Shown here: positions 41,721 to 60,036 of the stretch, in pieces | Layout of the letters: each line of letters opens with the position of its first letter | Position numbering within the stretch: position 1 is the stretch's first letter | Assembly (NCBI GenBank): GCA_963845565.1 | Contig: CAWJSJ010000004.1 | Coordinates: 129,298 to 193,297, forward strand | Source: an uncultured Methylomirabilota bacterium | GTDB lineage: Bacteria; Methylomirabilota; Methylomirabilia; Methylomirabilales; 2-02-FULL-66-22 | Direction: 5' to 3' | DNA: 64,000 nucleotides | Translations under genes and position numbers: made by a program | The notes under the pieces: generated by a model | What the model was told of the DNA's origin: nothing | The model's database searches: none | The model's input: the letters and a program-made list of their open reading frames with translations, nothing else

Positions 41721-41792
41721 CAGACGAGCCACGAGCCTAGAGCCACGAGCGGCGACCGGAGGGCCGAGAGCGTAGCGGGACGCGGAAGAATT
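41716..41792. repeat. Heptanucleotide-periodic tandem array (11 units)
   Basis: CGTGACA GACGAGC CACGAGC CTAGAGC CACGAGC GGCGACC GGAGGGC CGAGAGC GTAGCGG GACGCGG AAGAATT; shares CCGAGAGCGTAG and GACCGGAGGG with the 18.9-kb array. Confidence 0.75.
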
Positions 41793-43577: not shown

Positions 43578-44807
43578 ATGCGGAAGATCAGCGTGCGGAA
43601 TCCGGTGGTGGAACTCGACGGCGACGAAATGACCCGGATCATCTGGAAGGCGATCAAGGAGAAGCTCATCTCTCCATACGTGGATCTCGATCTCAAATAC
43701 TATGATCTCGGCATCGAGAGTCGCGATCGCACCGACGACCGGATCACCGTGGAGGCCGCCGAGGCGATCAAGCGCTACCGGGTCGGCGTCAAGTGCGCGA
43801 CCATCACGCCGGACGACAACCGGATGAAGGAGTTCACCCTCAAGCGGATGTACAAGTCCCCCAACGGGACCATCCGGAACATCCTCACCGGTACCGTCTT
43901 CCGGGAGCCCATCGTCTGCAAGAACGTCCCCCGCCTGATTCCGAGCTGGACCAAGCCGATCTGCATCGGGCGCCACGCCTTCGGCGATCAGTATGTGGCG
44001 ACCGATTTCGTGGTGCCGGGCAACGGCAAGCTGACGATCACCTTCACGCCCGAAGGCGGCGGAGAGCCGACGACCTACGAGGCCTACCAGTTCAAGACCG
44101 GGGGCGGGGTGGCGCTGGCGATGTACAACACCGAGGAGTCCATTCGCGGCTTCGCGCACGCCTGCTTCAACCAGGCGCTGCTGAAGGGGTGGCCCCTGTA
44201 CCTCTCCACCAAGGATACCATCCTCAAGAAATACGACGGACGCTTCAAGGATATCTTTCGGGAGATCTACGAGGGCGAGTATCGGCAGCGTTTCGAGGCG
44301 GCCGGGATCTCCTACGAGCACCGGCTCATCGACGACATGATTGCCTCCTCCCTGAAAATGGCCGGGGCGTTTGTCTGGGCATGCAAGAATTACGATGGGG
44401 ATAACGCGTCCGACATGATCGCACAAGGGTTCGGCTCCTTGGGACTCATGACCTCGACACTCATCACGCCCGACGGGGGAACCATGGAGGCCGAGGCCGC
44501 CCACGGAACGGTCACGCGCCACTTCCGCGACCACCAGCAGGGCAAGCGCACATCCACCAACCCCATCGCCTCGATCTTCGCGTGGACCCGCGGACTGGCC
44601 TTCCGGGGCCGGCTCGACGACAACCGGGAGCTCGTCGGGTTCTGCGAGACCCTGGAGAAGGTCTGCGTGGAGACCGTGGAATCGGGCAAGATGACCAAGG
44701 ACCTCGCCGTGTGCATCCACGGCAAGGACGTGAAGCCCGCGCACTATCTCTACACCGAGGACTTCCTGGCGGCCTTGGACAAGAACTTGCGGGCTCGACT
44801 GGGGTGA
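43578..44807 (+). CDS. icd: NADP-dependent isocitrate dehydrogenase (eukaryote-like dimeric type)
   Basis: [14 protein letters not shown]...[10 protein letters not shown]...[10 protein letters not shown]...[10 protein letters not shown]. Confidence 0.95.
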
Positions 44808-44855
44808 GCAAGGCGGCGGGATCAGAGACGACGGCGCGGTGCGCGCCGCATCGTC

Positions 44856-45911
44856 TCATGCCTCGAAGGGAATCCCGACGCTCGCTCCCAGCTTGGTCAG
44901 GTCGTTGACGACGGCGTCGCTCAGCGGGATGCCCTGTTCTCGCCGCTCCTGCTCCGTGAGGAACTCGGGTTCCCCGGCCACCATGATCTTGCTGAATCCC
45001 TTCGCCAGGGGTTCCGCCTTGACCTCGCGGATCATGGCATCCATGTTGGCCTTGAATTCGGCGGCGGGCCGGAACCGATCGATCCGGATCGCGCCGAAGA
45101 AATGGCCGACCCCTTGGTTGCGTGTGGGGTTGTTGTACAACTCCCCGACATGCGGCCCGAAGGGACCGCCGGCCAGCGTGGCCGTCAGCACCTCGATGGC
45201 CATCGCCAGGCCGAAGCCCTTGTGACCGCCCAGCGGGAGCAGCGCGCCCTCGTTGGCTTCCTTGGCGCTGGTGGTCGGCTCGCCGTCCTTGTTGAGACCC
45301 CAGGAGATGGGGATGGTCTCGCCCTTCTTCGCCGCCAGGATGATGGCGCCCCGGGCGACGACGCTGGTGGCCATGTCCAGGACGAACGGCTTCTCCTCGC
45401 CGGCGGGCACCGCGATGGCCAGGGGGTTGGTCCCGAAGAAGGCCTTGCGCCCGCCCCATGGCGCCATCAGGGAGGGGGAGTTGGTGAGCGAGATGCCGAT
45501 CATGTCCTGGTCCAGCGCCATCATGGCATAGTACGCGGCCGTTCCAAAGTGCGTGGAATTCTTGGCCGTCACCATCCCGATGCCCGCCGATCCGGCCTTG
45601 GCAATGGCGAGCCGCATGGCCCGGGTGCCGACCACCTGCCCGAGGCCGTCCTGCCCATCGTAGACGGCCGTCGTCGGCGTCTCGGCGCTCACGACCCCCT
45701 GCGCGCGCCCGTTGGTGAGCCCGGCCCGCAGCCGCTCCACGTAGATGGGGAGCCGGGTGATGCCGTGCGTGTCCACGCCGCGCAGGTTGGCCGCCAGGAG
45801 TGAGTGGGCCACGATCTCGGCGTTCTCCCTGGGCACGCCCGCCTTTTCCAGCGCCGCCACGCAAAATGCCGAGAGTTGTGATGACTTGAAGCGACGTCCG
45901 GTGTCTTCCAT
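44856..45911 (-). CDS. Ldh_2 family (malate/L-lactate/sulfolactate-type) dehydrogenase
   Basis: LLAANLRGVDTHGITRLPIYVERL; 351 aa. Confidence 0.85.
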   Translation of the reverse strand: MEDTGRRFKSSQLSAFCVAALEKAGVPRENAEIVAHSLLAANLRGVDTHGITRLPIYVERLRAGLTNGRAQGVVSAETPTTAVYDGQDGLGQVVGTRAMRLAIAKAGSAGIGMVTAKNSTHFGTAAYYAMMALDQDMIGISLTNSPSLMAPWGGRKAFFGTNPLAIAVPAGEEKPFVLDMATSVVARGAIILAAKKGETIPISWGLNKDGEPTTSAKEANEGALLPLGGHKGFGLAMAIEVLTATLAGGPFGPHVGELYNNPTRNQGVGHFFGAIRIDRFRPAAEFKANMDAMIREVKAEPLAKGFSKIMVAGEPEFLTEQERREQGIPLSDAVVNDLTKLGASVGIPFEA

Positions 45912-46192
45912 GCTGTCAGCCTCCGTGTGTTTTTGCGTCCGCGATCCGTGGGGTCCGCTGAACCTTCGGTCGGCCCGGCCCGAATGGGCGGAGGATGCCG
46001 CAGGCTGCCAGGGCAGTCAAGGGCAAACTGGGGCCCGTGGACCGGTTGCCAGGTGGCCGAGGCGAACGTGCCAGGCGGGCGGAGGAATTCCCCATCTCTT
46101 GGTTCCTGACTGACAGCCGGGCATGAATATGGTATAAATGACGCAGCATTGTGTGAACTGCGAATCGTCATCCTTTCGTTGAGGAGGTCGTA

Positions 46193-47095
46193 ATGGCAAA
46201 AGCTCGGGTGTCCATGGCAGGCATCTTTCCGCCCATTCCCACGCCCTTCGATGCGGCGGAGGAGCTGGATCTCAAGGCGTTGGCCGGCAACATCGAGAAG
46301 TGGAACAAGACGCCGATCAACGGGTACGTCGTGCTGGGATCCAACGGCGAAATGACCTACCTGTCCGAGGCGGAGAAGGTGGCGGTGTACGAGACGGCGC
46401 GGAAGCACATCCCGTCGAGCAAGCTCATGATGGCGGGCTGCGGTTGTGAGTCCACCCACAGCAGCATCCAGCTCACCAAGAAGGCGGCGGCGATCGGGGC
46501 GGACGTGGCGCTCTTCATCAGCCCCTGCTACTACAAGTCGAAGATGGACAACGCCGCGCTCGCGGACTACTACACGCGCCTCGCCGATGCCTCGCCGATC
46601 CCGGTGAGCGTGTACAACTTCCCGGCGAACACGGGCATTGACATGACGGCGGAGCTGGTCATCAAGCTGTCGCAGCACCCGAACATCGCGGCCGTCAAGG
46701 AGAGCGGCGGCAACGTGGTGAAGATGGGCGAGATCATCAAGAACGTCCGCCCGGACTTCCAGGTGCTGGCGGGATCGGCCGGGTTCCTGTACCCGTCCCT
46801 GGTCCTCGGCGCCGTGGGCGGCGTCCTGGCCCTGGCCAACATCGCGCCGCAGCAGTGCTGCGACATCCTCGCCTTTGCCAAGGCGGGGAAGCACGAGGAG
46901 GCTCGCCAGCTCCAGCTCCGGATGATCGCGCCGAACACCGCGGTCACCGCGGGCTTCGGCGTGGCCGGGTTGAAGGCTGCCATGGACATGCTGGGCATGG
47001 TCGGCGGCAAGCCGCGGAGCCCGATGCAGCCGCTCAGCGACGAGCAAAAGGCGAAGCTCAAGGGCATCCTGCAGACCGCGGGCATTCTGCAGTAG
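46193..47095 (+). CDS. Dihydrodipicolinate synthase/N-acetylneuraminate lyase family protein
   Basis: GIFPPIPTPF...GYVVLGSNGEMTYLS... Confidence 0.85.
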   Translation: MAKARVSMAGIFPPIPTPFDAAEELDLKALAGNIEKWNKTPINGYVVLGSNGEMTYLSEAEKVAVYETARKHIPSSKLMMAGCGCESTHSSIQLTKKAAAIGADVALFISPCYYKSKMDNAALADYYTRLADASPIPVSVYNFPANTGIDMTAELVIKLSQHPNIAAVKESGGNVVKMGEIIKNVRPDFQVLAGSAGFLYPSLVLGAVGGVLALANIAPQQCCDILAFAKAGKHEEARQLQLRMIAPNTAVTAGFGVAGLKAAMDMLGMVGGKPRSPMQPLSDEQKAKLKGILQTAGILQ

Positions 47096-47122
47096 TGTCC
47101 GATCTCCGTGGGCAATGGTTTT

Positions 47123-47157
47123 CTGCCAGCTGTCACCTGCCCGCTGCCAGCTGGCTT
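47123..47157. repeat. 35-bp CTGCCAG heptad module
   Basis: CTGCCAG CTGTCAC CTGCCCG CTGCCAG CTGGCTT, ending 5 nt before the tmRNA 5' end. Confidence 0.75.
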
Positions 47158-47162
47158 TTCAA

Positions 47163-47512
47163 GGGGGTGCAACGGTTTCGACGGGGGCAAGGGGGTACAG
47201 GTGGCATGCCGAGTCCCCACCGGCTCGTAAAAGGTGGGAAAAACACAACTGCCAATAACGAATTGGCCCTCGCTGCCTAACTAGCAGCGACGTCCCCCTT
47301 GCCCCGCTTGCCGGGTGAGATCGGGGCGTCATAAAGGCAAGCTAGGCTAGCCGATCCCGGCCCGGGGTCGGCCGGATGAAAACCAATGGGCTGGTCGTCG
47401 GGAGCCCTGCCGGCGGGGTTACCTGGCGACGAGAAAAAAACGCCGGCTACGCATGTAGAAGCCTGTACTGACAGGTTCTCGGACGGGGGTTCGACTCCCC
47501 CCACCTCCACCA
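47163..47512 (+). ncRNA. ssrA: tmRNA (SsrA), tag ANNELALAA
   Basis: 5' GGGGGTGCAACGGTTTCGACGGGGG pairs with 3' ...CACCTCCACCA (G3:U pair); tag ORF GCC AAT AAC GAA TTG GCC CTC GCT GCC TAA at 47251-47280; T-arm GGGGGTTCGACTCCCCC. Confidence 0.95.
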
Positions 47513-47516
47513 GAAC

Positions 47517-47550
47517 GAACGGGCTCCCCTCGGGGAGCCCGTTCGATTTT
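47517..47550 (+). terminator. Rho-independent terminator of ssrA
   Basis: GAACGGGCTCCCC-TC-GGGGAGCCCGTTC followed by GATTTT. Confidence 0.8.
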
Positions 47551-47594
47551 GCTGATACGGGCCGGGACGACTGGCGGGCAATAATAAGCGCCGT

Positions 47595-47628
47595 AACGGG
47601 CTCCCCTCGGGGAGCCCGTTTCGTTTTA
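47595..47628 (+). terminator. Second copy of the same terminator hairpin
   Basis: AACGGGCTCCCCTCGGGGAGCCCGTT (26 nt identical to the first) followed by TCGTTTTA. Confidence 0.6.
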
Positions 47629-47841
47629 TGCCATTGTGACGGTTTCGTTCATCAAGCCCGGCCGCCTGTCACCTACCCGCGGCCGGCCGGTCTTCAGTCC
47701 TCTGCCTTCCGCCTCCTGCTCTTCCCTCATCGACGAATTGACGAACGGCCTGCTTGACGAACTGACCCGTCGCCGTTTACCGCCTGCCCCCGCCCTTCGG
47801 CTCTCGGCACTCGGCTCTACAGACTCGCGCAGTGACCCCGG

Positions 47842-48123
47842 ATGTCACAGCCCTCTTGTATGATCCCGCCAGACGAGAGCCACCAGGGCGGGCGAGCGCG
47901 AATCAGCGGACGCGGCACCCTGGAGTCAGGGGAGGAGGACACCCATGCGGATGTACGAGCTGTGGAAACGGCGACGCCGGAGCGGGAGCCGCGCCGACTC
48001 GAAGACGCGGGCGGGCCGGTGCTGTTCGACCGGTCCTGTGACGCGGAGGCGTACTCGGCGGAGGATCGGGACCGCTGGGAGGCGCGCTTCACCATCGTGC
48101 CGGTCACGGTCGGCCGGGCCTGA
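47842..48123 (+). CDS. Small hypothetical protein upstream of the ClpP-fold protease
   Basis: High GC3 in the C-terminal half (VLFDRSCDAEAYSAEDRDRWEARFTIVPVTVGRA). A strong GGAGGAGG-ATG at 47945 is in another frame, so the start or frame is unresolved. Confidence 0.3.
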   Translation: MSQPSCMIPPDESHQGGRARISGRGTLESGEEDTHADVRAVETATPEREPRRLEDAGGPVLFDRSCDAEAYSAEDRDRWEARFTIVPVTVGRA

Positions 48124-48174
48124 ATCGGCCGGGGGCACTCGTTGACGCAAACCCCGCAGGACAAGGAGGTGTCC

Positions 48175-49119
48175 ATGACGACTTCCGAACAGCAGGTTCC
48201 CACGGCGGCGGAGCGCATTCGCGAGGCGGCGGCGGCGTTGGCGCGCCACCGGGGCGGCCCGTGTCTGGTCTTTGTCAGCCGGTCCCTGGTCCACGCGGAC
48301 ATCCTCACCGTCCGGACCGCGCTCGGGAGTGCCCGCGGGGACCATCTCGATATGATCGTGGCCGGCCCGGGCGGGCGGAGCGAGGCCGCGTACCTCCTCG
48401 CCCGGGAGCTCCGGCGCCGGTTCGCGCGCCTGACGGCCTATGTGCCCTTCGAGGCGAAGAGTGCGGCCACGCTCCTGTGTCTCGCCGCGGACGAGCTGGT
48501 CCTGGGCGACCTGGGGGAACTGGGCCCCCTCGATCAGCAGTACGAGGCGAAGCAGACCGCCGACTACCCTCTGAGCACCTCCCAGCTGCTCCCCGGGGTC
48601 GCGCTCCGTCAGCTCCAGGACGGGGCCACGGCGTGCTATGACGCCCTGGTGCGCCGGATCGTGAAGGAGAGCGGCCTCCGGCCGCTCGAGGCGGGCAGCA
48701 AGGCCGCCGAGCTCGTCGGGACCCTGTATGCGCCCCTCGTCCAGCAGCTCGACCCAACCCGGTTGGCGGAGTGTGCCCGCGGGTTGGCCGTGGGGAAGGC
48801 GTACGCCGAACGGGTGCTGCGGCGCTACCGGCCCGCCCTCTGGGCGGAATCCGGCCCCCAGCTCCTGGACCGCCTGGTGCAGGACTACGCGACCCACAAC
48901 TTTGTCCTCGATCGCGAGGAACTCGCGGAGGTGGGCCTCCCCACCCGGGCGCCCGACGACACGGAGGCGGCTCTGCTGAACCAGCTCGCCCTCGCGCTGA
49001 TTGCGTTCGGAACGGACGACGACCTGATCGCCCTCGTGACTGCGGGCCGACGGGACCCCCACGCTGGCGGCTGCCGGTTCCAGCCAGGCGCGGGGACACA
49101 CGCCGCGGAAAACACTTAG
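48175..49119 (+). CDS. ClpP/SppA-fold serine proteinase (SDH-family-like)
   Basis: DMIVAGPGGRSEAAYLLARELRRRF..LTAYVPFEAKSAATLLCLAADELVLGDLGELGPLDQQ resembles the SDH proteinase core; GGAGG RBS before ATG 48175. Confidence 0.55.
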   Translation: MTTSEQQVPTAAERIREAAAALARHRGGPCLVFVSRSLVHADILTVRTALGSARGDHLDMIVAGPGGRSEAAYLLARELRRRFARLTAYVPFEAKSAATLLCLAADELVLGDLGELGPLDQQYEAKQTADYPLSTSQLLPGVALRQLQDGATACYDALVRRIVKESGLRPLEAGSKAAELVGTLYAPLVQQLDPTRLAECARGLAVGKAYAERVLRRYRPALWAESGPQLLDRLVQDYATHNFVLDREELAEVGLPTRAPDDTEAALLNQLALALIAFGTDDDLIALVTAGRRDPHAGGCRFQPGAGTHAAENT

Positions 49120-49470
49120 GGGGCGCGCAGGTCGCACTACATAGAAGGGACGATCTCAATGCGAACTGCGGGACGGCACCGGCGGCTCGCGGCGGTTCTG
49201 CTGTGTGCGGTGATTGTGGCAGGGTGCGCGCTGTGCCGGCTTCATGGTTGACATTCTCACCAAGACACAACACTCTGAGATGCGCCCGGAGTTGATGGAG
49301 CGTTTCGAGCATTCGCTCCTGATCCACGGTGGCGCGCGCTGAACGACTTGGCTGCGGCGTGGCGGCCGTGGCGTGGACTTCAGGGTCCTCCCAGCATCAA
49401 TGGCACCGTTTCCGACTAGGCGGGAGGGAGTGCAGACGGTATAATATCCTTACGAGGGACGGTAGGAACA

Positions 49471-49670
49471 ATGATCTATCGTATTGCGCTTCGAGCATCG
49501 GAGGAAGGGTATCAGCGCGTCGGTGCCGGGCTTGCCTGGCTGTTGGTCGCAGGGGGCCACCGAAGCGGGAAGCGCTGGAGAACATCCGGGAGGCTATCCG
49601 GGAGTACCTTGCGGTCGCCGCGGAATTGACCCAGGGTGCCGAGATGCGTGAAGTTGACGTTGCGGTCTAG
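49471..49670 (+). pseudogene. hicB: HicB-family antitoxin, two frame changes
   Basis: MIYRIALRASEEGY / SASVPGLPGCWSQGATEA / EALENIREAIREYLAVAAEL... are readable only by switching frames twice. Confidence 0.7.
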
Positions 49671-49672
49671 CC

Positions 49673-49782
49673 ATGGGAAAGTTTCCCGGCATCAACCATC
49701 TGGATGCCGTCCGCGCCCTCCAGAAAGCTGGTTTCCGCATCGCTCGCCAAGGTAAACACTTGTCATGACTGACGGCGTCCGC
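49673..49782 (+). pseudogene. hicA: HicA-family toxin, frame-shifted and 3'-truncated
   Basis: MGKFPGINHLDAVRALQKAGFRIARQGKHL then (frame change) VMTDGVR; homology ends where the HD-like remnant begins. Confidence 0.6.
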
Positions 49783-50026
49783 ATGCGAGCGCGGCACCCC
49801 GCCGACCGTGGTCGCGGTCCGATTGTCGTTCACCCGACGCGCGTCATGGAGGACCGAGAACAGCTCCACGACGTCGGGGTCGGCTCACCGTCGTGCGGCG
49901 AGGCGGAGGCCGATCGTTCGCACGCGCGCCCAGTGGGAGATGCCATGGATCCCGTCTCCACTCGAGTCGATGCAGCTGGCGGATCGCGTCGAGGAGCGGG
50001 CCGGTCGACGCAGACGGCCGTGTCAT
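49780..50026 (-). pseudogene. Decayed 5' fragment of an HD-like gene (paralogue of 58891-59427)
   Basis: Across three frames: LLDAIRQLHRLEW / GDGIHGISHWARVRTIGLRLAARR / VVELFSVLHDARRVND / DRDHGRRGAAL, versus the intact IWTIHAIRAQYTLPWRGTHGITHWARVREAGLRLAARTGANLAVVELFAVLHDARRRNEGVDPGHGGRGADF. Confidence 0.65.
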
Positions 50027-50099
50027 CCGCGTGGGCCTTCAGCTTGCCACCTCGCCCGCTCGGCCAATGGACGCATCGACGCGTAGACTCTGTCGCTCC

Positions 50100-50127
50100 C
50101 TGCCAGCCGCCAGCTGTCTACTGCCAG
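50100..50127. repeat. CTGCCAG heptad module
   Basis: CTGCCAG CCGCCAG CTGTCTA CTGCCAG, directly 3' of the WYL gene stop. Confidence 0.6.
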
Positions 50128-50138
50128 CGTCCCCCAGG

Positions 50139-51127
50139 TCACGTCTTGCTGAGAATCCGCTCGGCGGCGCTGCGAACAGCGTCCTTGAGTTCTTGAGGCC
50201 GGAGGATCGTCACGCCGCCGCCGAATCCCAGGAGCCACCCGACCAGCTCCGGCGTGGCGGCGACGGTGAGGGTCATCCGGAGGCGGCCGGTCTTCTGGGG
50301 CTCGAGCTTCTGGCTGGGGTGCCAGGTCCGGTCCTTCACCCAGGCGGTGGTGGCCTTATCGAAGAGAAGCTCGACGGTGACGGGCTTTCCCCGCATCACC
50401 CGAAGAGCGTCCCCGACGTAGGCCTCCAGGTCGAAGCTGAGGGGAAGCTGGAAGGCGTGGTCGGTGAGGGTGCAGCTCCGGATCCGCTCCACGGCGAAGA
50501 GCCGGACGGACTCGCGCAGGTGGCAGTAGGCGACCAAATAGAGTGCGCCGTTCGCGTACCACAAACGGTAGGGGTTCACTTCCCGCCGCGTGGTCTGGTT
50601 CCGGCTGGCGGTGAAATACCGGAGCTGGACCGTCCGGCCCTTGGTGATCGCCTCGGTCAGTTTGTCGATGGTCTCCTTGTGCTGGCGGTAGCTCACGTGA
50701 GGACCGAGGCCGATGGCGAAGCAACCGTCCAGTTGTTGGAGGTACGCGTGGCCCGGGGCGGGGAGGGCGGTCGCGGCCTTCCCCAGGGCAGAGTCGAGGG
50801 ATGCCTGGAGCTGGGTCCCCTCCAAGGGGCGCAGGAGGCCCCGGCTAAACGTCAAGGCCATCAGTTCCGTCGGGGAGAAGGCGAGCGCGGGGATATTGCG
50901 GAAGCCCTCCATCAGCTTCCAGACCACGCCGCGGCCGTCGACCTTCTCCGTGAGGAGGGGGAATCCCGCGGCTTCCAGTGCTTCCAGATCCCGGCGGATC
51001 GTCCGGTGGTGCCGCGTGAAATCGGCGGGGAGTCCGTCCGCCAGCGCCTGGAGCGTCAGCCCTCCCGGGACACCTCGAGGGTGCGGAGCAGGTGCCACTG
51101 GCGGGTGACCTGGTCGTTCCGGGGCAT
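50139..51127 (-). pseudogene. HTH-WYL domain transcriptional regulator, one frame change near 51058-51062
   Basis: MPRNDQVTRQWHLLRTLEVSREG (frame 1) continues as LTLQALADGLPADFTRHHRTIRRDLEALEAAGFPL...; WYL region NPYRLWYANGALYLVAYC. Confidence 0.75.
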
Positions 51128-51533
51128 GCCGACCCTCCCAATTTCGGGGTCCACCTCGCAAATCCGATGTCGTGACGCCCGGGACTCTGACACATTCCCT
51201 GGCCTCGAGCAATCACAGCGTGGCAATTGTCCGCCTGCGTCTGCAACCCGCGGTCGGCCCCAAATGCGCGACACAGATGGGAGCCGTGTTCGGTATGCGG
51301 TGTGAAGAACCTCGGTCGCAGATTGAGCCCGCGCTCGTGCCTGCCCTCGGTGACACGGCGCTCTTCCGGACGCCTCTCCTGTTCGCGTCAGGTGGTGGGG
51401 GGCTCGTGGAAACTCTGCGAGGTTCCCGTGGGGTTAGGGCGTCTCCTTGAGGAGTCGCTTGACCAGTCGGACGAACTCCGTCGCTTCGTCAGGAGGTTGC
51501 GAGCCTCGGTCTCCGCGATGCGGCCCGCCATCC

Positions 51534-52225
51534 AGTCAGAACTTCATCGGCGCACCTGGTGCGACCATTCAGCAGGCCCTCTACATTCCGCCAGAGCCCT
51601 CCCGGGTGCCGGCGTATATGGACAACTGGGAGAAATACTACCACGCGGACGAGCGGGATCCCTTGGTGCAGCTCGCCCTGATCCATGCCCAGTTCGAACT
51701 GATCCATGCGTTTCTGGATGGCAATGGTCGACTCGGCCGGATCCTCGTCCCGATCTTCCTCTACGAACGGCAGCTCCTCGCTCGGCCGATGTTCTACCTC
51801 TCCGCGTACCTCGAGAGCCACCGCGAGGAGTATGTGGGGTTGTTGCGGGGACTGGACGGGCCGGAGACGTGGAGCCCATGGATCGCCTTTTTCCTGCGCG
51901 CCCTGACCGAGCAGGCGCGGGAAGGCGCCACGAAGGCCAGGCGGATCCTGGCCCTGTACGGGCGCCTCAAGGGCGAAATCCTGGAGTTGACCCATTCCCA
52001 GTTCGCCGTCCCGCTCCTCGACCGACTCTTCCACCAGCCGGTGTTTGCGAGCAGCACGCTGGTTGCCGACAAGGCCATGCCGAGCAAACCCATGGTCATG
52101 GCGCTGCTCCGAAAGCTGCGAGATGCCGGCATCCTGGTGGTGGTCCGCGAAGGGAGCGGCCGGCGGGCCAGATCCTCGCCCTGGGCGAACTGGTGAATCT
52201 CTGCGAAGGGAAGCGGGCTTTCTGA
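51534..52225 (+). pseudogene. Fic/DOC family protein, 5'-truncated with a frame change near 52165
   Basis: SQNFIGAPGATIQQALYIPPEP...HAFLDGNGRLGR (Fic motif)...; tail GSGRRA / QILALGELVNLCEGKRAF is in another frame; the usual N-terminal ~170 aa are absent. Confidence 0.8.
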
Positions 52226-52404
52226 GGAGCGGGGGCCCGGCTGCAGCGATCAATCCCTGTCCTTGCTTTCCAGCGCCCGAGTGCCTCTGCAGTACTGTTG
52301 TCTCCCCATCACGCCATCCCCCCTTTCCGCCTCGTTCTGTTCCTTGCCGGCTACCAGTTGCTGGAAACGCCGGAAGCTCTGCGCATAGCGCGCTCCCAGT
52401 CTAT

Positions 52405-52511
52405 GCAGATGCTGGCGACGTGAAGCCGGCCATCCAGCGGCTCACCGCCTTTCTCGCCGCTCCCGAGGTGGCGGCAGCGACCGACCCTGAGATCCGGGCC
52501 ACCCGGCGGCG
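52405..52511 (+). repeat. Diverged duplicate of the vWA gene 3' end (matches 56722-56828)
   Basis: ADAGDVKPAIQRLTAFLAAPEVAAATDPEIRATRRR vs ADAGDVKEAIQRLTAFLAAPEVAAATDPEIQAARRR; 107 nt, no indel, about 11 mismatches by eye. Confidence 0.8.
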
Positions 52512-52593
52512 GATCCGGTCCGTTTGAGGCGACTCGCGGATCTCGGCAGGCGAGATGGTCTCGCGCTTGATCCGGCCGGAGCGGAGCAGATCG

Positions 52594-52954
52594 TCAAGCG
52601 CCATCGGGGGACCCCAGGAGGGGAATCAGTGGGCCGGCGAGGATCCGGGCGACGAAGCTGCCCCGTTCGCGGCGCCGGCGAGCGAATTCGCGGGGCGTCA
52701 AGGTCGTCTCCCGGCTGTAAGGAACGTTTGAGCCGACGGACGGCGGCGCGAGCCTCCAGGGACCGAATGGGCTGGGCGAGAAAGGACCGGCCTGCAAAGG
52801 GAAAGCGGCAGAGGGTGGGGACCAGGTCGTCGAACAGGCGGTCGAGGAGGCGATCAAACGCCCCGCGCCCCTCCTCGCCGAGGAAAGTCTGGATGGCCCC
52901 AAGGTTCTCGGCGAAGTTGTGGGTAAAGACCGGCGCGAGCCGCTTACCGGCCAT
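52594..52954 (-). pseudogene. parE: ParE/RelE-family toxin, one frame change near 52695-52705
   Basis: MAGKRLAPVFTHNFAENLGAIQTFLGEEGRGAFDRLLDRLFDDLVPTLCRFPFAGRSF...; start overlaps the antitoxin stop (ATGGCCGGTAA). Confidence 0.6.
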
Positions 52955-53223
52955 AGCGGGTACGTAACTGACGTACCGTCAGGGTCCGACCGGCCGCGAT
53001 GTCGGCATCGCTGCGCGGCCTCGTGGAGAAGAAGCAGGTGGATCCGCTCCCGTTCCAAGCGGTGATAGTACTCCAACCGGTCGGCGCCAATCAGCGCGGC
53101 ACAGCTCTCGCCGTTCTTGGTGATCAGTTTTTCGACCGGACCGCCGGACACCTCCTCACACGGTTCGGTGAACTGGGCACGCGCCTTGGTGAGGGGGACA
53201 ACGTCTCGTGGCGACAGGGACAT
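52944..53223 (-). pseudogene. phd: Phd/YefM-family antitoxin, one frame change near 53008-53012
   Basis: MSLSPRDVVPLTKARAQFTEPCEEVSGGPVEKLITKNGESCAALIGADRLEYYHRLE..., tail DADIAAGRTLTVRQLRTRYGR in another frame; GGAGG RBS. Confidence 0.7.
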
Positions 53224-53380
53224 GGGACACCTCCTTCGCATGGACGGAGGATATGCACTGTACAGGATTCTGTCAAGTCGAGTCACCCACTGGACGCGCA
53301 CGGAGGCCCTCGGGTATGAAACAAACCAGGATGGGTGACACCGGTGGGAAAAGCCGTCTACGGGGAGGAGGTCCCTGACC

Positions 53381-53615
53381 GTGAAGAAGACCCGGAAGGT
53401 TCAGCGTTTCACCGTGGTTCTGGAGCGCGACGAGGACGGGTTCTACGTGGCGTCCATTCCGGCCCGCGCGGGGTGCCCCCGGCCGATCACTGGACAGGCC
53501 ATGCGGCGCATTCGGGAGGCGGCGGGCAGAGGCTGGAGGTCCGTCGGGAAGGCGGGGCGGATCGCTGCCGACCTTGGATCTGGTCGGAGTCCAGCAGCTC
53601 GAGATCCCCGCATGA
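53381..53615 (+). pseudogene. hicB: HicB-family antitoxin, at least three frame changes
   Basis: VKKTRKVQRFTVVLERDEDGFYVASIPA.., QAMRRIREAA, RLEVRREGG and LPTLDLVGVQQLEIPA are spread over all three frames. Confidence 0.65.
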
Positions 53616-53701
53616 CCCGCCTTGCCCCCATCTCCGCCCGCGAGTTGCAGGCAATGCTCTCCCGGCTGGGATTTCAGCTGGTCCGACAGAAGAGGTCGTA
53701 A
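53612..53701 (+). pseudogene. hicA: HicA-family toxin, 3'-truncated fragment
   Basis: MTRLAPISARELQAMLSRLGFQLVRQK then stop; ATGA overlap with hicB. Confidence 0.6.
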
Positions 53702-54266
53702 ATGGAGAAGGGCACGGTGGAGCGCATCCCTGCCGAGCGCGTTGCGCGGGCGATCGTGCTGGTGCGTGGGCAGCGTGTACTCTTGGACAGGGACTTGGCG
53801 GTTCTGTACGGGGTGGAGACGCGCGTGCTGAATCAAGCGGTACGGCGGAACATCGTGCGGTTCCCGCCGGATTTCCTGTTCAGGCTCACCCGCGAAGAGA
53901 TTCGGGACATATCACAAATTGTGACATGTTCGACCATCAAGCACGCCCGCAGCGTGAACGCGTTCACCGAGCAGGGGGTGGCGATGCTCTCGAGCGTCCT
54001 CAAGAGCGAGCGGGCGATTGCGGTCAATATTGCCATCATGCGGGCGTTCGTGCGGCTGCGCGAGACGACGTCTTTGCAGAACGACCTTATCACCAAGCTC
54101 GGCGATCTGGAGGCAAGATCGGACAAGACGCGAGATTCGCACGCTAGTGGACGCCATCCGCCAGCTCATGGCCCCGCCGGAGAAGGCCTGGCGGCCCCCC
54201 GACGTCCCAAGGAACGCGTCTCGCTGTCCCTGTCGGATATCCCTGTCGCCCCTCGGCTTCGGGTGA
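53702..54266 (+). pseudogene. ORF6N (KilA-N-like) domain protein, frame change near 54130
   Basis: IVLVRGQRVLLDRDLAVLYGVETRVLNQAVRRNIVRFPPDFLFRLT...FTEQGVAMLSSVLKSERAIAVNIAIMRAFVRLRE; tail EIRTLVDAIRQLMAPPEK in another frame. Confidence 0.75.
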
Positions 54267-54486
54267 GGCAGGGGTCCGGCGTACCGAGTGCGGCGGCCGC
54301 GGCGCCCAGGCGGGCAGTCAGGAGTGGAATAAGATAAACAAATTACGGTCGACGAATTGCTCAGCTCCCCGCAGCGAGCCGCAGCCAGGCCGGTGGCCGC
54401 GGTGTGATTGCGAAGCCGGTTTCACGTGGTATGAAGGTGCCGTCGGTGCACAGATCGCGGGCGCTGAATGGGTCAGGGGGGCAGCC

Positions 54487-54795
54487 ATGACGCTGAGCCG
54501 GGAGGAGCGGGAACGGCTCAAACGCGAGGTCGTGGCCTGTTTGAGCGGCGAACCGGAAGTCCGACGGGTGGTGCTCTTCGGATCGTTCGTGACGAGTCCG
54601 ACGCCGCACGACTTGGATGTGGCGGTCTTCCAGGAAAGTGACGAGGGCTACCTGCCCCTCGCGCTCAAGTACCGCCGACTGCTCCGGAGGGTCGCGGAAA
54701 CGATCCCCGTGGATGTCCTCCCCCTCCGCTCCGCTGGGACGACCGGGGAATTCCTGAAAGAGGTGGAGCGGGGCGAGGTGGTGTATGTCCGCTGA
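54487..54795 (+). CDS. Minimal nucleotidyltransferase (MNT) antitoxin
   Basis: VVLFGSFVTSPTPHDLDVAV (GS...D.D motif); intact 102 aa. Confidence 0.8.
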   Translation: MTLSREERERLKREVVACLSGEPEVRRVVLFGSFVTSPTPHDLDVAVFQESDEGYLPLALKYRRLLRRVAETIPVDVLPLRSAGTTGEFLKEVERGEVVYVR

Positions 54796-55175
54796 GGCGC
54801 GCCGCTGGTTGGGGTATGCGGAAGAGAATCGGCGCGCCGCGGAACTCTGTCTGCAGGCGAACCCATCAACCCGTGCTTGCAGAATGCCCAGCAGGCGGTG
54901 AGAAGGCACTCAAGGCCCTGCATCTCGGCAGTGGACTTTCCCTCAAGAGGACCCACAGCATCGGGGAACTTCGGAGAGATCTTCTCCGCGCGCAGGTAGA
55001 CCCCGGACTGACAGCGGATGCCGCCGACCTCTTGGATACGATCTACCTCCCATCGAAGTATCCCCTCGGCTCTGTCTTGCCGGATTTCGAGCCCGACGTC
55101 ACGATGGCACAACGCTGCGTGGCGCTTGCCAATGAAGTGCTCACCGCAGCCGGCAAACGATTCCCCTCGGAATAG
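54785..55175 (+). pseudogene. HEPN domain toxin partner of MNT, two frame changes
   Basis: MSAEARRWLGYAEENRRAAELCLQA / PINPCLQNAQQAV / EKALKALHLGSGLSLKRTHSIGELRRDL (R-x4-H motif); start overlaps the MNT stop by 11 nt. Confidence 0.7.
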
Positions 55176-55403
55176 CGCGTTTCGTTTCCCCCCACCGTTC
55201 GTATGCAGTTCCCTCAGCGACTGTTCAGTCTCGACGCCTTGACCGACCGCGAGCATCGTTGACCTGGTTGTCCACCGCCTTCGGACCGTCCGCAACCTCC
55301 TGCGTGCGCCCCAGCGCCCCTGCACCTCGGCGCCTCTGTCGCCTTCAGGTTTCCCTGTCCCGCTCGCTGTCGCTGGCGCACACGCCCTGCCCGCTGTTCT
55401 CCC

Positions 55404-55615
55404 CAATCTGCAATCTGCATTCGACAATCCGCAATTCCCATTGTGACCCCACATGTCACACATGTATGGCATCCTCGTCGCGTCGGCGCTTGAACTTGAT
55501 TGCCGATTGCCGATTGATGATTGCCGATTGCTGAACAAAGCGTAAGGCGCTGAGCGCTTAGCGCCAGAGGATTCCGTTCTCTGCCGGCTGCCAACTGCCC
55601 GCTGCCAGCTGGCCC
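55404..55615. repeat. ~210 bp of uninterrupted 7-bp phase (about 30 heptads)
   Basis: CAATCTG CAATCTG CATTCGA CAATCCG CAATTCC ... GCCGATT GCCGATT GATGATT GCCGATT GCTGAAC ... CTGCCGG CTGCCAA CTGCCCG CTGCCAG CTGGCCC. Confidence 0.75.
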
Positions 55616-55632
55616 TGGAAGGGAGGCTTCTT

Positions 55633-56946
55633 ATGTCGGAACCCGCATCGCCAAATCGCCAAATTGCCCAGTTGCCGCACGCCGTCCTGATGCGTCTGGA
55701 CATCATCCCCGAACGCCCGTGCCTGCCGGTCGGCGAGGTCACCTCCCTTCCCGTCCTCATCCGCCTCACCGCGCCCACCGTTCCCCAGATGGCCCGGAAG
55801 CCCCTCAACCTCTGTCTCGTGATCGATCGGAGTGGCTCGATGGCAGACGAGAAGCTCCGCCACACCATCGCCTCGGCCAAGTTCGTGGTCGAGCGACTGG
55901 CGGCCACCGACCTCCTTTCGGTGGTCCAGTTCGACGAGCGGGTGAAAGTCGTCATCCCGCCGGGACCCGTGACCGATCGGGCGCACCTCTGCCGTCGCCT
56001 GGACGGCATCCACGCCGGCGGGCAGACGAACCTCTCGGGCGGCTGGCTGCGTGGCGCGGCCTGTGTCCGGGAGCGGCAGGCGCCCGATTACATCAACCGG
56101 GTCATCCTGCTCACCGACGGCCAGGCCAATCACGGGATCACCGATCCGGCTGTCCTGGTGAAGCATGCGGCGGAATTGACCGAAGAGGGAATCACCACAA
56201 CGACGATAGGTTACGGCGAAGACTTCAACGAAGATCTCCTGACGGCATTGGCCGATGCCGGCCGGGGAAACGCCTACCACGTCGAGACCGCGGACCAGGC
56301 GCCGACCATCTTCGCGCGGGAATTGGAAGGACTCCTGGCGATCGCCGCCCAGAACGTCCGGGTGACGTTCACCCCGAGCGGTCTCGTCCGGCGGGTGGAC
56401 CTCTGTTCAACCATGGAGCACCACCGGGACGGGAGGACCCTCACCGTCACCGTGGGCGATCTCGTCAGCGAGGACACCCGGTCCCTGCTTCTCATCCTCC
56501 GGACCGATCCCGGGAAGAAGGAGGGGTGGGCGGATCTGGGGACGGTCACCGTCACGTACGACGACGTGGTCGGGGGGATTTGTTCCAGGACCCTCACCCA
56601 CGAGGTCGTCGTCGGAGCGATCGCCCCCGCGAAAGTCGCCGCCATCCCGCCGGATGCCGCGGTGGGCAAAGAACTGCTCATCCTCCGTGCCGCGAAAGTC
56701 CTCCAGGCTGCCATCACCGAGGCAGATGCTGGCGACGTGAAGGAGGCCATCCAGCGGCTCACCGCCTTCCTCGCCGCTCCCGAGGTTGCGGCAGCCACCG
56801 ATCCCGAGATCCAGGCCGCCCGCCGGCGACTCAAGGAGATGCTCCACGATCTCCAGGATCGGGGGTTCGACAAGATGTCCCGGAAGCACATGGTCTATTC
56901 CAGTCGCGAGTGGACCCAGGGCAGGTCGAAGGGAGGGGCTGACTAG
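55633..56946 (+). CDS. von Willebrand factor A (vWA) domain protein
   Basis: MIDAS DRSGSM, ...GGQTNLSGG..., LLTDGQAN; intact 437 aa with a helical C-terminal region. Confidence 0.85.
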   Translation: MSEPASPNRQIAQLPHAVLMRLDIIPERPCLPVGEVTSLPVLIRLTAPTVPQMARKPLNLCLVIDRSGSMADEKLRHTIASAKFVVERLAATDLLSVVQFDERVKVVIPPGPVTDRAHLCRRLDGIHAGGQTNLSGGWLRGAACVRERQAPDYINRVILLTDGQANHGITDPAVLVKHAAELTEEGITTTTIGYGEDFNEDLLTALADAGRGNAYHVETADQAPTIFARELEGLLAIAAQNVRVTFTPSGLVRRVDLCSTMEHHRDGRTLTVTVGDLVSEDTRSLLLILRTDPGKKEGWADLGTVTVTYDDVVGGICSRTLTHEVVVGAIAPAKVAAIPPDAAVGKELLILRAAKVLQAAITEADAGDVKEAIQRLTAFLAAPEVAAATDPEIQAARRRLKEMLHDLQDRGFDKMSRKHMVYSSREWTQGRSKGGAD

Positions 56947-58160
56947 AGCTCCGCGAATGGCAGGGCCGTGACGCCCGGGGCGAGCGGCAAGCGGACCTCG
57001 CCGGCGTGAACCACGTAGCCGGGCGCGGCCTTGGTGCCGAGCAGTTCGCGAAAGGCGACGATTCCCGAGGCCATCGCCGGCCGTGGGGTGGCGGAGGTCT
57101 TCACCTCGATGGGGACGAGAACCGACCCCGTGTCCACGACGAAGTCCACTTCTGCGCCGGTGGAGGTCCGCCAGAAGTACACCTCGGGGTCGATCCCGCG
57201 CCCACCCAGGCCTTTCACGAGTTCTGCGAGAACGGCGGTCTCGAAGATCGCGCCGGCCATCGGACCGGCGGCCGCGTGGGTCGCGTCCCGCAGTCCGGCC
57301 AGGAAGCACAGGATCCCGGTATCAGTGAAGTACACCTTGGGGGTCTTCACGAGACGCTTGCCGACGTTGGCAAAGTAGGGGCGCACGATCCGGATCTGAT
57401 GGGTGGCTTCCAGGACCGAGAGCCACGCCTTGGCGGTGTTCACCGCGACCCCGAGGTCGCGGGCCAAGTCGGTCAGGTTGAGAAGCTGCCCGCTCCGGGC
57501 CGCCAGTCCCCGCAGGAAGACCTGGAAGAGCGTGAGGTCGCCGACCTGGCGCAGGACGCGGACATCCCGCTCCAGGTAGGTTTGGATATAGCTGGCGTGC
57601 CAGAGGGCCGGCTCCCGCTTCGGATGGGCGGCGAGTTCCGGGTAGCCGCCCCGGAGCAGATGTGCCCAGAGGGCGCGAAGGGGCGGGACCTGGCGGAGGG
57701 TGCCGGTCCGTTCCCATGGCAGCGGCCGACCAGGTTCGCCCGCAAGCTCACGATGGGACAAGGGCAAGAGCCGTAGGGTGGCGGCACGACCGGCCAGGGA
57801 CTCGGTGATCTGCGCCATCAGGAGCAGGTTCTGGGACCCGGTCAGGAGATACTGGCCCGTGGCCGCCCGGCGGGCGTCGATCCGCTCCTTGACATAGGGC
57901 AAGAGGTCGGGCGCGTACTGGACCTCGTCGAGGATGACCGGCGGGGGATACAAGTCCAGAAAGCCCCGCGGGTCCGCGGCAGCCGCCGCGCGGACGTCCG
58001 GCGCCTCCAGGGACACATACCGGGCGCGGCGGCCGAACAGGCGGGCGAGGAGCGTCGTTTTCCCGGCCTGGCGAGGACCGGTGAGCACCACCGCGGGGAA
58101 CTCCCTGGCCGCCTGCCGCAGAACGGGCTCCAGGGTACGAGGGATGTAACGGGTGGCCAT
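56943..58160 (-). CDS. AAA ATPase with DUF4143 domain
   Basis: LTGPRQAGKTTL Walker A, ILDEVQ Walker B, C-terminal DUF4143-like region; intact 405 aa. Confidence 0.8.
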   Translation of the reverse strand: MATRYIPRTLEPVLRQAAREFPAVVLTGPRQAGKTTLLARLFGRRARYVSLEAPDVRAAAAADPRGFLDLYPPPVILDEVQYAPDLLPYVKERIDARRAATGQYLLTGSQNLLLMAQITESLAGRAATLRLLPLSHRELAGEPGRPLPWERTGTLRQVPPLRALWAHLLRGGYPELAAHPKREPALWHASYIQTYLERDVRVLRQVGDLTLFQVFLRGLAARSGQLLNLTDLARDLGVAVNTAKAWLSVLEATHQIRIVRPYFANVGKRLVKTPKVYFTDTGILCFLAGLRDATHAAAGPMAGAIFETAVLAELVKGLGGRGIDPEVYFWRTSTGAEVDFVVDTGSVLVPIEVKTSATPRPAMASGIVAFRELLGTKAAPGYVVHAGEVRLPLAPGVTALPFAEL

Positions 58161-58268
58161 GCGGGCTCTCCTGTCTGTGCAATTATGCATTTGGAGTGCA
58201 CGATTGCAAGGCCAAAATTCACCGGCGGCAGGTGGAACAGGGAGACTGCACTCCGTCTCTCTGACTCG

Positions 58269-58339
58269 CTGCCTTCTGCCCGCTGGTAGCTGTACTTCAG
58301 TCCCCTGCCAGCTGCCATCTGCCCGCTGCTAGCTGGTCG
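58269..58339. repeat. Two adjacent CTGCCAG heptad modules
   Basis: CTGCCTT CTGCCCG CTGGTAG CTGTACT ... CTGCCAG CTGCCAT CTGCCCG CTGCTAG CTGGTCG, ending 5 nt before ATG 58345. Confidence 0.75.
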
Positions 58340-58344
58340 AAACG

Positions 58345-58669
58345 ATGAGCGGTCGAACCGGATCGGCCGGACGGAGGAACGGCAGGGACGGATCGAGGTG
58401 TACGACACGCAATCCAACCGCATCGGCGAGGGGGTGCGGCAACCGGACGGCAGCATCGACTTTCGGGACCCGCAGGGGAATCGGATTGGACGCACCGGCC
58501 CGCCGAGCACCGACGGCTCGGTGCGGTTTGACGATGCGCGTCCAACCGCGTCGGGCAGGGCAGGCCCGACACCACGGGGCGCTATCAGTACGAGGACCGG
58601 GGATCCACCCGGCGCGGCAGCGGCGACGCCTCGGGCCCCGTGTGGCTCCAGCGCGGCTCGCGGAAGTAG
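58345..58669 (+). pseudogene. Small tandem-repeat protein (SNR[IV]G repeats); start and frame unresolved
   Basis: ERSNRIGRTEERQGRIEVYD TQSNRIGEGVRQPDGSIDFRD PQGNRIGRTGPPSTDGSVRFDDA then (other frame) SNRVGQGRPDTTGRYQYEDRGSTRRGSGDASGPVWLQRGSRK*. Confidence 0.35.
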
Positions 58670-58738
58670 GCCGATGTTTCCGACTGCGCACGGAGGCGGG
58701 ACGGCGGCATTGGGGCGTTCTTTCCGCGTCCCAGCCCA

Positions 58739-58766
58739 CTGCCACCTGCTTCCTGCCAGCTGGTTT
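58739..58766. repeat. CTGCCAG heptad module
   Basis: CTGCCAC CTGCTTC CTGCCAG CTGGTTT. Confidence 0.6.
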
Positions 58767-58890
58767 CCATGGTGCCCAACGCCAGACACGTGCACGCGGG
58801 TCGGGCTACGCCCTTGCACCGTGCAGAGGTGTCTGTTATACATCCCACCGGGCTTTCGCCCGTCCTTGGAAGCTTGGAGCTCGACGGCCG

Positions 58891-59427
58891 ATGTCCTCAG
58901 ACCTTACTGAGATATGGACAATCCATGCGATTCGGGCACAATACACGCTCCCCTGGCGGGGTACTCACGGCATCACCCACTGGGCCAGGGTGCGAGAGGC
59001 GGGGCTCCGCCTGGCGGCACGGACTGGCGCCAATCTGGCCGTCGTGGAGTTGTTCGCGGTGCTGCACGACGCCCGCCGCCGGAACGAGGGGGTGGACCCC
59101 GGCCACGGCGGGCGGGGAGCGGACTTCGCCGCCACACTCCGGGGCACGCTGATTCATCTCGCCCAGGCCGAGTTCGCGCTCCTTCACACTGCCTGTGCCG
59201 ACCATACCAAGGGGTTGCTCGACGCCGACATCACGATCCAGACCTGCTGGGACGCGGACCGACTGGACCTCGGTCGGGTTGGTACCACACCGGACCCGGC
59301 GCGGTTGTGCACCGCCGCGGCCCGGGATCCTGACATGATCCGATGGGCCGGGCAGCGCAGCGGCGGGGAGTATGTGCCACCGGTGGTGGACCAGGAGTGG
59401 GATGGGGGGCGGCGCACGCGGAGGTAA
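58891..59427 (+). CDS. HD-domain-like hypothetical protein
   Basis: THGITHWARV...FAVLHDARR...CWDADRLDLGRVG; intact 178 aa; decayed paralogue at 49.8-50.0 kb. Confidence 0.6.
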   Translation: MSSDLTEIWTIHAIRAQYTLPWRGTHGITHWARVREAGLRLAARTGANLAVVELFAVLHDARRRNEGVDPGHGGRGADFAATLRGTLIHLAQAEFALLHTACADHTKGLLDADITIQTCWDADRLDLGRVGTTPDPARLCTAAARDPDMIRWAGQRSGGEYVPPVVDQEWDGGRRTRR

Positions 59428-59686
59428 AGGAGTGGGCGGAGTCAATTGGAGGATCGGATGTTTTCGGACGCATGCTAGTTCCAGCTTTTCACCCGGGAAC
59501 TGAGGTACCGGACACCTTTTGACGCGTAACCATTTGATTTCCTTGAAGCGCCAATCAGATTCTTCTGCCAAATACGACAAGTTGCGCGAGTCCGGCACCT
59601 CCCTGCCTCGCCTACCCGCCACCGCGTGATGGCACGAGGGCGTGCGTGTCGAGTCATCTCGTGGTCGTCGTGCCCGGCGCCAGCAC

Positions 59687-60022: not shown

Positions 60023-60036
60023 CGGACTTTCTCCTC

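Follow-up and report, generated by a model that had tools for sequence, protein, structure and literature searches.

The question raised by this locus is what a short module of CTGCC-type heptads, found just upstream of the tmRNA gene (ssrA) and again ahead of other genes nearby, represents, and what it does, if anything. A preliminary description had offered a protein-binding array, a recombination hot spot at the joints between gene cassettes, or a promoter-proximal element. The window, i.e. the whole stretch of 64,000 nucleotides that was analysed (C4:129298-193297), belongs to an assembly of 5.36 Mb with 66% G+C (genome G000), and relatives of its dihydrodipicolinate-synthase (DHDPS) gene are found in Methylomirabilota/NC10 MAGs. 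The six copies described earlier are all present at their coordinates, far above chance:

47123-47157, plus strand, CTGCCNG module 1, five units: CTGCCAG CTGTCAC CTGCCCG CTGCCAG CTGGCTT
55581-55615, plus strand, CTGCCNG module 2: CTGCCGG CTGCCAA CTGCCCG CTGCCAG CTGGCCC
58305-58339, plus strand, CTGCCNG module 3: CTGCCAG CTGCCAT CTGCCCG CTGCTAG CTGGTCG
58269-58296, plus strand, diverged CTGCC array: CTGCCTT CTGCCCG CTGGTAG CTGTACT
58739-58766, plus strand, diverged CTGCC array: CTGCCAC CTGCTTC CTGCCAG CTGGTTT
50100-50127, minus strand, array, in the sense of the WYL gene: CTGGCAG TAGACAG CTGGCGG CTGGCAG

Each of the three modules consists of five in-phase CTGxxxx units; the other three arrays are weaker but still in phase, and the one at 58269-58296 has CTGTACTTCAG in common with an array elsewhere in the genome (C2:2039308). 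The pattern CTGCCNGCTG matches the window 11 times, always on the plus strand, where 1.15 matches are expected and none of 100 shuffles reached 11, and with about 26 such CTGCC arrays in 5.36 Mb, the occurrence of at least five within 11.6 kb has a Poisson P of ~5e-9, which upholds the view of a non-random, periodic module. A search of positions 44000-64000 against Rfam returned no RNA family except tmRNA.

The genes and arrays that adjoin the modules are as follows:

46193-47095, plus strand, DHDPS-family gene upstream of ssrA (Pfam PF00701, E = 5e-59), with its stop codon at 47093-47095
47096-47122, plus strand, weak hairpin and T-run directly after the DHDPS stop, a terminator-like match with 6 pairs and the tail ATGGTTTTCT
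47163-47512, plus strand, ssrA (tmRNA), tag ANNELALAA (ARAGORN; Rfam RF00023, 202.5 bits)
55404-55435, plus strand, CAATCTG-type heptad array in the same spacer as module 2
55498-55533, plus strand, GATTGCC-type heptad array in the same spacer as module 2
55537-55564, plus strand, xxAGCGC-type heptad array in the same spacer as module 2
55633-56946, plus strand, vWA-domain gene (Pfam PF00092, E = 1e-19)

All three modules had been said to end shortly before a start, and this is borne out for two of them: module 1 ends 5 nt ahead of the tmRNA 5′ end, and module 2 ends 17 nt before ATG 55633, which is preceded by the Shine-Dalgarno (SD) sequence GGGAGG. The start assigned to module 3, ATG 58345, is doubtful, as its frame encodes Arg-rich junk and, in G009, the closest relative, the counterpart of this ATG is followed by a stop after 6 codons; a frame with SNRIG repeats opens at GTG 58398 and later degenerates, and the region 58345-58670 is probably a decaying or frameshifted small gene. 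ATG 55633 itself has a strong SD of its own, but the orthologue in another relative (G004, locus L054), whose protein begins MRLDIVPERP, starts at the counterpart of a downstream ATG near 55690. Relative to that orthologue, the first 19 codons in the window (MSEPASPNRQIAQLPHAVL, 55633-55692) form an N-terminal extension, and the G004 leader is short, without the GATTGCC, xxAGCGC and CTGCC-module arrays that adjoin the window's start. The 19-codon extension and the array-rich leader of ~150 nt appear to be recent additions.

The module is not confined to this neighbourhood in kind. A self-match scan of the genome yields 116 arrays of period 7, compared with 28 of period 6 and 11 of period 8, and at a TRF score of at least 50 there are 60 period-7 arrays versus 5, 15 and 6 at neighbouring periods; 70% of the period-7 arrays are intergenic. 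Runs of four or more CTGNNNN units form 75 arrays genome-wide and are of two kinds, CTGCCNG and GCTGANN, and the genome holds at least six unit types, including GAGCCGN, CAATCGN, AACCGAC and TCGAATT. Outside called genes, in the ~21% of the genome left uncalled, lie 23 of 28 CTGCY arrays and 69 of 70 CTGA arrays, where the calls come from a simple self-trained caller and are approximate (79% coding), so that distances to starts are equally uncertain. The modules share the traits by which heptanucleotide tandem repeats are recognized, having at least three head-to-tail 7-nt units, an excess of period 7, a mostly intergenic position, and copy numbers that change by whole units. The CTGCC module is therefore no separate element, and represents one local variety of a genome-wide class of imperfect heptanucleotide arrays with more than 100 members in 5.4 Mb. 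To place all copies but the first at boundaries of gene cassettes was too narrow, since such arrays lie at gene boundaries throughout the genome, including those of core genes and the spacers between tRNA genes. Further heptad arrays in the window, of the GAGCC, GCTGA and GGCTC types, lie at 18925-18957, 22704-22764, 41722-41761 and 47787-47819, all in spacers beside gene ends.

How the arrays are placed depends on their orientation. Between co-oriented genes, 18 of 23 sense-strand GCTGA arrays precede the downstream start by 1-48 nt, and 12 of 14 TCAGC arrays follow the upstream stop by 1-16 nt; a frequent layout of the spacer is stop, (NNTCAGC)3-5, spacer, (GCTGANN)3-7, SD, start. The order can also be scored in a way that needs no gene calls: TCAGC..GCTGA pairs occur 10 times (28 times with a relaxed partner) and the reverse order never. 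Arrays of the GCTGA type are over-represented behind genes and in convergent spacers, and under-represented in divergent ones. Across five unit types, the right-hand gene is the nearer one for 41 R-form arrays versus 15, and the left-hand gene for 49 L-form arrays versus 20 (Fisher p = 9e-7), so the proposed bias toward pre-start positions is recovered over all unit types, while the CTGCC type taken alone shows the same trend at a level that is not significant. Most genomic copies of the CTGCC type are in fact GGCAG arrays straight after stops, and the window copies at 47123, 55581 and 58305 represent the complementary pre-start form. The copy at 50100 had been grouped with the elements upstream of starts; it sits 11 nt past the stop of the WYL gene on the minus strand (50139-51212) and, in the sense of that gene, is of the GGCAG type, the purine-rich form that follows stops. 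More generally, purine-rich forms (GGCAG, TCAGC, GAGCC) come after stops, and their pyrimidine-rich complements (CTGCC, GCTGA) come before starts, whichever of the two strands is concerned.

Neighbouring arrays of the same type are inverted in 22 instances and direct in 2. When inverted pairs of all types are pooled, 22 of the 27 have a purine-rich arm on the 5′ side and 5 have a pyrimidine-rich arm there (p = 0.0015). A rule that the G-rich arm comes first was rejected, as the excess of G over C, with 16 pairs versus 9, lacks significance. Hairpin stability does not account for the fixed purine-first polarity. Also rejected was a role as an all-frame stop, in which three GCTGANN units would place TGA in all three frames before a start: the CTGCC, GGCTC, CAATC and CGGTT arrays contain no stops, and GCTGA pairs also fill spacers between tRNA genes (G024, G021).

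The position of module 1 poses the question of the ssrA promoter most directly, as the module had been taken for the only candidate promoter space of this gene. A search for sigma-70-like -35/-10 sequences on the plus strand of 46000-47162 gave no match, and the best promoter reading by eye within the module, CTGTCA-N17-GGCTTT, agrees at 5 of 12 positions. In seven relatives (loci L032-L038, from G006, G017, G011, G001, G015, G005 and G007), all with an upstream neighbour of ssrA other than the DHDPS gene, a promoter TTGACA-N17-TAGACT is conserved ~60-80 nt upstream of the mature tmRNA 5′ end. Five of the seven (G011, G001, G015, G007 and, in weaker form, G005) carry TCACG-type heptads between this promoter and the tmRNA, and the leader heptads of these promoter-bearing relatives end 7-16 nt ahead of the tmRNA. 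Genomes in which the DHDPS gene is the neighbour are without TTGACA-N17-TAGACT before ssrA, and their DHDPS-ssrA spacers contain the following:

G014, TCAGC x5 / GCTGA x4, the whole spacer an inverted array with no promoter
G018, GAGCC / GGCTC
G012, GGCAG and GAGCC / GGCTC
G004, TCAGC x4 / CTGCC x3, one unit fewer in the ssrA array
G009 and the window, the CTGCC module alone

A sigma-70 promoter conserved at the position of the module was thus rejected, because the promoter of the relatives lies 5′ of the heptads and the spacers of G014, G018 and G012 are paired arrays of other unit types. We regard it as highly unlikely that the 47123 module nevertheless constitutes or includes the promoter of ssrA or an element proximal to it. 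The hexamers CTGCCA and CTGTCA do agree with TTGACA at 4 of 6 positions, and if the weak terminator-like hairpin after the DHDPS stop were efficient, the module space alone would remain for a promoter; but a -10-like hexamer at the proper spacing is missing, and the same module type is also found after stops and between tRNAs. Since no promoter-like site lies between the two genes and the heptads of relatives stand in the leader, the DHDPS gene and ssrA are probably co-transcribed, or ssrA is reached by read-through, with the tmRNA 5′ end made by RNase P. We infer transcription of the module, the ssrA start site and processing alike from sequence comparison.

Whether the modules form a structure of their own can be judged from the predicted stems:

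47125-47132 / 47148-47155, plus strand, module 1 stem, GCCAGCUG / CAGCUGGC, with a 15-nt loop, followed by UUUUCAA and the tmRNA 5′ end
55583-55590 / 55606-55613, plus strand, module 2 stem, with one A-U changed to G.U
58307-58314 / 58330-58337, plus strand, module 3 stem, with two G-C changed to G.U

None of the three modules has a partner arm, and the terminal CTGG in each lets GCCAGCTG...CAGCTGGC pair as an 8-bp stem around a conserved 15-nt loop. RNAfold predicts one structure common to all three (z = -2.8, -0.9 and -1.5, the latter two weak), and the segment 47118-47162 folds at -15.8 kcal/mol (z = -2.8). The three stem substitutions among the modules are all wobble-compatible (A-U to G.U once, G-C to G.U twice), with no double compensatory change; as the chance of such an outcome is ~1 in 8, they are only suggestive of a shared hairpin. 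Where arrays do form inverted pairs, the paired arms fold into long hairpins with bulges, at -31 to -74 kcal/mol. The variable dinucleotides of these arms show no excess complementarity, and permuting the order of units leaves the folds as strong (mean z = +0.16), and on this ground compensatory pairing of the variable dinucleotides was rejected. The DHDPS-ssrA spacers of relatives fold with z = -2.6 to -4.9, and those of G000 and G009 fold no better than shuffles (z = -1.2 and +0.75).

The same hairpin invites a second reading of the ssrA copy, as a leaky intrinsic terminator or attenuator whose 8-bp GC-rich stem and UUUU, 7 nt before the tmRNA, would tune read-through from the DHDPS gene into ssrA. 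This appears very improbable. The stability of the stem and the UUUUCAA that follows it are in keeping with a terminator, as is the frequent presence of a hairpin and T-run enclosed in the spacers of other array pairs. Against it, a loop of 15 nt is on the long side for a terminator, the terminator scan made no call here, the U-run is missing from modules 2 and 3 as it is from the spacers of G014 and G018, and ssrA would starve on termination at this point unless it had a second promoter.

Arrays of this class also occupy the spacers between tRNA genes. In the Pro-Arg-His-Arg-Arg-Lys-Leu cluster of the genome (C2:2423708-2424878), five of six spacers hold an inverted heptad pair, four of the form (GATTGNN)n..(NNCAATC)n and that of the Arg-Arg spacer AATGACC..GGTCATT, and the tRNA-Lys/tRNA-Leu spacer is without one. 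The tRNA-Ile/Ala spacer of the rRNA operon (C2:2415464-2415694) contains a GATTG..CAATC pair; the arrays of this operon are confined to that spacer and none flanks 16S or 23S, so that gene-enclosing processing stems as in rRNA were rejected as a model. The same tRNA cluster carries GCGGAAT..ATTCCGC or AATGACC..GGTCATT in G139, G004 and G014, GGGTNTA..TANACCC and TCAGC..GCTGA in a second family (G024), and GTTCANN..NNTGAAC in a third (G021); heptads were not found in this cluster in G022 (family f5) or G031 (another order). Of 27 heptad-bearing tRNA spacers, 21 give a more stable fold for the sense RNA than for the antisense, with a mean difference of -5.2 kcal/mol (Wilcoxon p = 1.8e-4) and 101 G.U pairs in the sense versus 50 in the antisense. 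The layout equals its own reverse complement, so that the asymmetry stems from mismatches; it fits a constraint at the RNA level, although C-to-T mutation linked to transcription could produce the same pattern. Between protein genes, the sense strand is the better folder in 9 of 18 pairs, which is no bias. Transcription and processing are probable both for the spacers that separate neighbouring tRNA genes of one orientation and for the one that precedes the tmRNA.

The proposal of a protein-binding array, whether operator or insulator, has to be set against this diversity of units. The omega-repressor operators of pSM19035, which a ribbon-helix-helix protein binds, consist of contiguous 7-bp units in direct and inverted order, whose arrangement matters, with a single consensus unit at plasmid promoters. 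The arrays described here resemble them in their contiguous, direct or inverted 7-bp units, a comparison of DNA layout alone, and differ in having many unit types that stand in leaders, in 3′ UTRs and between tRNAs. If the arrays were double-stranded DNA sites for a protein that reads 7-bp units cooperatively in this manner, the conserved core of 4-5 nt with 2-3 free positions per unit and the dependence of the layout on orientation would both be accounted for, and the heptad pairs of Geobacter have been proposed as regulator sites (PMC2700814). However, at least six unit types would need equally many readers, and orthologous sites differ in unit type but share the layout. Arrays between adjacent tRNA genes and after the stops of convergent spacers are unexpected for operators, as is their position in leaders, and the strand asymmetry of G.U pairs in tRNA spacers points to RNA. 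The protein-site proposal thus loses ground and is improbable.

Turnover of the arrays is best followed in G009, which is syntenic with G000 at ~90% identity. Orthologous arrays of the two genomes differ by indels of ~21, 21, 28 and 28 nt, or one genome lacks the array; at the 58305 site, only the 3′ end of the module, CTGCTAGCTGGTCGAAACGATG, is left in G009. The ssrA module has the same length in both, with 2 substitutions in unit 2, and the 27 nt upstream of it are more diverged. Within the window, the three modules are one another's best blastn matches, with similarity that stops at 32-34 nt and unrelated flanks, and the pattern GCCNGCTGNNNNCTGCCCGCTGNNAGCTGG has 4 matches in 21 genomes of the genus, which are the three window sites and the G009 ssrA site only. 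The exact module was therefore probably copied locally among leaders, for which local copying or gene conversion is the simplest reading of the alignments. The same abrupt end of similarity excludes a MITE or larger shared mobile element, and a link to REP/BIME elements and RAYT transposases was rejected with four PF01797 (Y1 transposase) genes present and no period-7 array within 1.2 kb of any. Modules without GTT or AAC cores, read directly, and a class that also occurs in tRNA and core-gene spacers, do not fit integron attC sites. The idea of a recombination hot spot or cassette joint is unsupported on similar grounds: the class recurs in tRNA-cluster and core-gene spacers, the flanks are not shared, and there is no GTTRRRY core.

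On a larger scale, CTGCCNN x3 is essentially limited to this genus. Almost every genome in five families of the order Methylomirabilales has GCTGANN x3, with 10-170 matches each and close to 0 in a reversed control; family f5 lacks it, and ~107 genomes from the rest of the class (the sister order) have 0-5 matches per genome.

Such turnover raises the possibility that the arrays are functionless mutational debris, written into tolerant DNA (UTRs and spacers) by lineage-specific slippage or fold-back copying, which we consider unlikely. It would account for the whole-unit indels, for arrays gained or lost at ~90% identity, for the vWA 5′ UTR of G004 that is without them, and for the many unit types, and it sits well with variable positions that show no compensation and with pairs between protein genes that show no strand bias. 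However, debris would not be expected to keep its layout in the same tRNA-cluster and DHDPS-ssrA spacers of three families while the unit type turns over, nor would its two arms always change jointly. The fixed polarity, the preference of tRNA spacers for sense-strand folding, and an ssrA module that is better kept than the 27 nt upstream of it likewise oppose it.

The explanation that we favour, with moderate confidence, is that the module is the genus-specific CTGCC variety of the imperfect heptad arrays that occupy untranslated spacers across Methylomirabilales, a slippage-prone repeat in transcribed leaders, forming an 8-bp hairpin and having an effect that, if any, is structural. Under this explanation, the ssrA module would lie in the 5′ leader of a DHDPS-ssrA (or read-through) transcript, from which RNase P would remove it on making the mature tmRNA 5′ end, and the vWA and 58305 copies would lie in 5′ UTRs. 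Each would fold as the hairpin drawn above for module 1 (GCCAGCUG/CAGCUGGC). In addition to slippage, local copying or gene conversion would have carried the exact module into the three leaders, which lie close together. The module might serve as a spacer or insulating hairpin that lets neighbouring RNAs or cistrons fold independently, or it might mark processing or stability sites; it would not act as a promoter, an operator or a recombination site. A bolder possibility, which we hold to be rather unlikely, is that the arrays constitute a boundary code of locked polarity, with the purine arm leading, which is read at the RNA level and which Methylomirabilales actively maintain. Such a code would require a lineage-specific factor that writes or reads 7-nt units, absent from family f5 and the sister order; complementary arms would bracket each cistron, tRNA and tmRNA and direct folding or processing, and CTGCCNG would be the 3′ arm of this genus, copied between leaders.

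Heptad repeats as such have precedents. The STRR heptamers of cyanobacteria (Calothrix, Nostoc) have been described since 1990. Heptanucleotide SSRs are over-represented in prokaryotes (Mrazek et al., 2007, as cited in PMC4692102). Like these SSRs and STRR sequences, the Methylomirabilales arrays are tandem 7-nt units whose period stands out against periods 5-9, mostly intergenic, with several unit types per genome and no established function; unlike them, the units are imperfect, with a conserved core and free positions, lie flush with stops and starts, and follow the purine-first polarity. Direct repeats of TAACTGA in marine Beggiatoaceae, cyanobacteria and Bacteroidetes, for which a post-transcriptional role has been proposed, are near-perfect copies of one unit that overlap the position of the ribosome-binding site and form an inverted pair once only (MacGregor, 2015; PMC4679880). 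They resemble the present arrays in their forward heptads a few nt from start codons and in the CTGA core in common with the order-wide GCTGANN, whereas here the SD usually lies 3′ of the array and complementary arrays follow stop codons. The GGGAATC repeats of Xanthomonas and GGGGAYT repeats of Nostoc (Rehm et al., 2015; PMC4692102) are likewise intergenic heptads, with some convergent inverted pairs and same-site variation in length and sequence between close relatives, but they are G-rich and quadruplex-forming, and CTGCCNG has no G-runs. In Geobacter metallireducens, MTYCTGA x5 in pairs and GGACCGG x4 are annotated as global-regulator sites or RNA elements, with no boundary or polarity rule reported (PMC2700814). 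These share with our arrays the 4-5 tandem heptads, the mostly inverted pairs and the CTGA core. Enterobacterial REPs consist of a single palindrome of ~35 bp and are mobilised by RAYT transposases. The arrays are similar to REP/BIME elements as dispersed, hairpin-forming intergenic repeats, transcribed as far as can be deduced here, with enrichment of the GCTGA type at gene ends; they differ in having arms made of heptad arrays, unrelated spacers, and no array near the four Y1-transposase genes.

The repeat class is thus known but unexplained, and the module is a further member of it. Our literature search found no paper linking NC10 or Methylomirabilis to heptamer repeats. What the present analysis adds is a stop/start polarity rule, a purine-first rule, the finding that tRNA and ssrA spacers keep their layout when the unit type changes, and the distribution at the level of the order. 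With its sharp order-level presence and absence, fixed polarity, and arrays in spacers that are probably transcribed and processed, this lineage offers a clean system for the study of heptad repeats, and the existence of Methylomirabilis enrichment cultures makes it feasible to test the arrays at the RNA level and to look for a reader or writer factor by phyletic profiling. In annotation, such modules should not be taken for promoters, operators or cassette joints.

Several minor features lie beside the genes discussed above. Just 3′ of ssrA, two copies of one strong terminator hairpin (GGGCTCCCCTCGGGGAGCCC and a T-run) stand ~80 nt apart, at 47516-47545 and 47595-47620, and the similarity of most relatives to the window ends at the tmRNA 3′ end (47512). 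Upstream of the vWA gene, an inverted repeat TGTGAC-N7-GTCACA (55442-55460) is kept in G004 though the leader around it differs, and is a candidate operator or promoter element. It is flanked on the left by the CAATC array (55404-55435) and on the right by the GATTG array (55498-55533), the reverse of the usual arm order. Elsewhere in the genome, C2:2613565-2613874 holds a remnant of a vWA paralogue with 81-86% identity to pieces of 55609-56914, located beside a CTGCCCA/CTGCCAG array.
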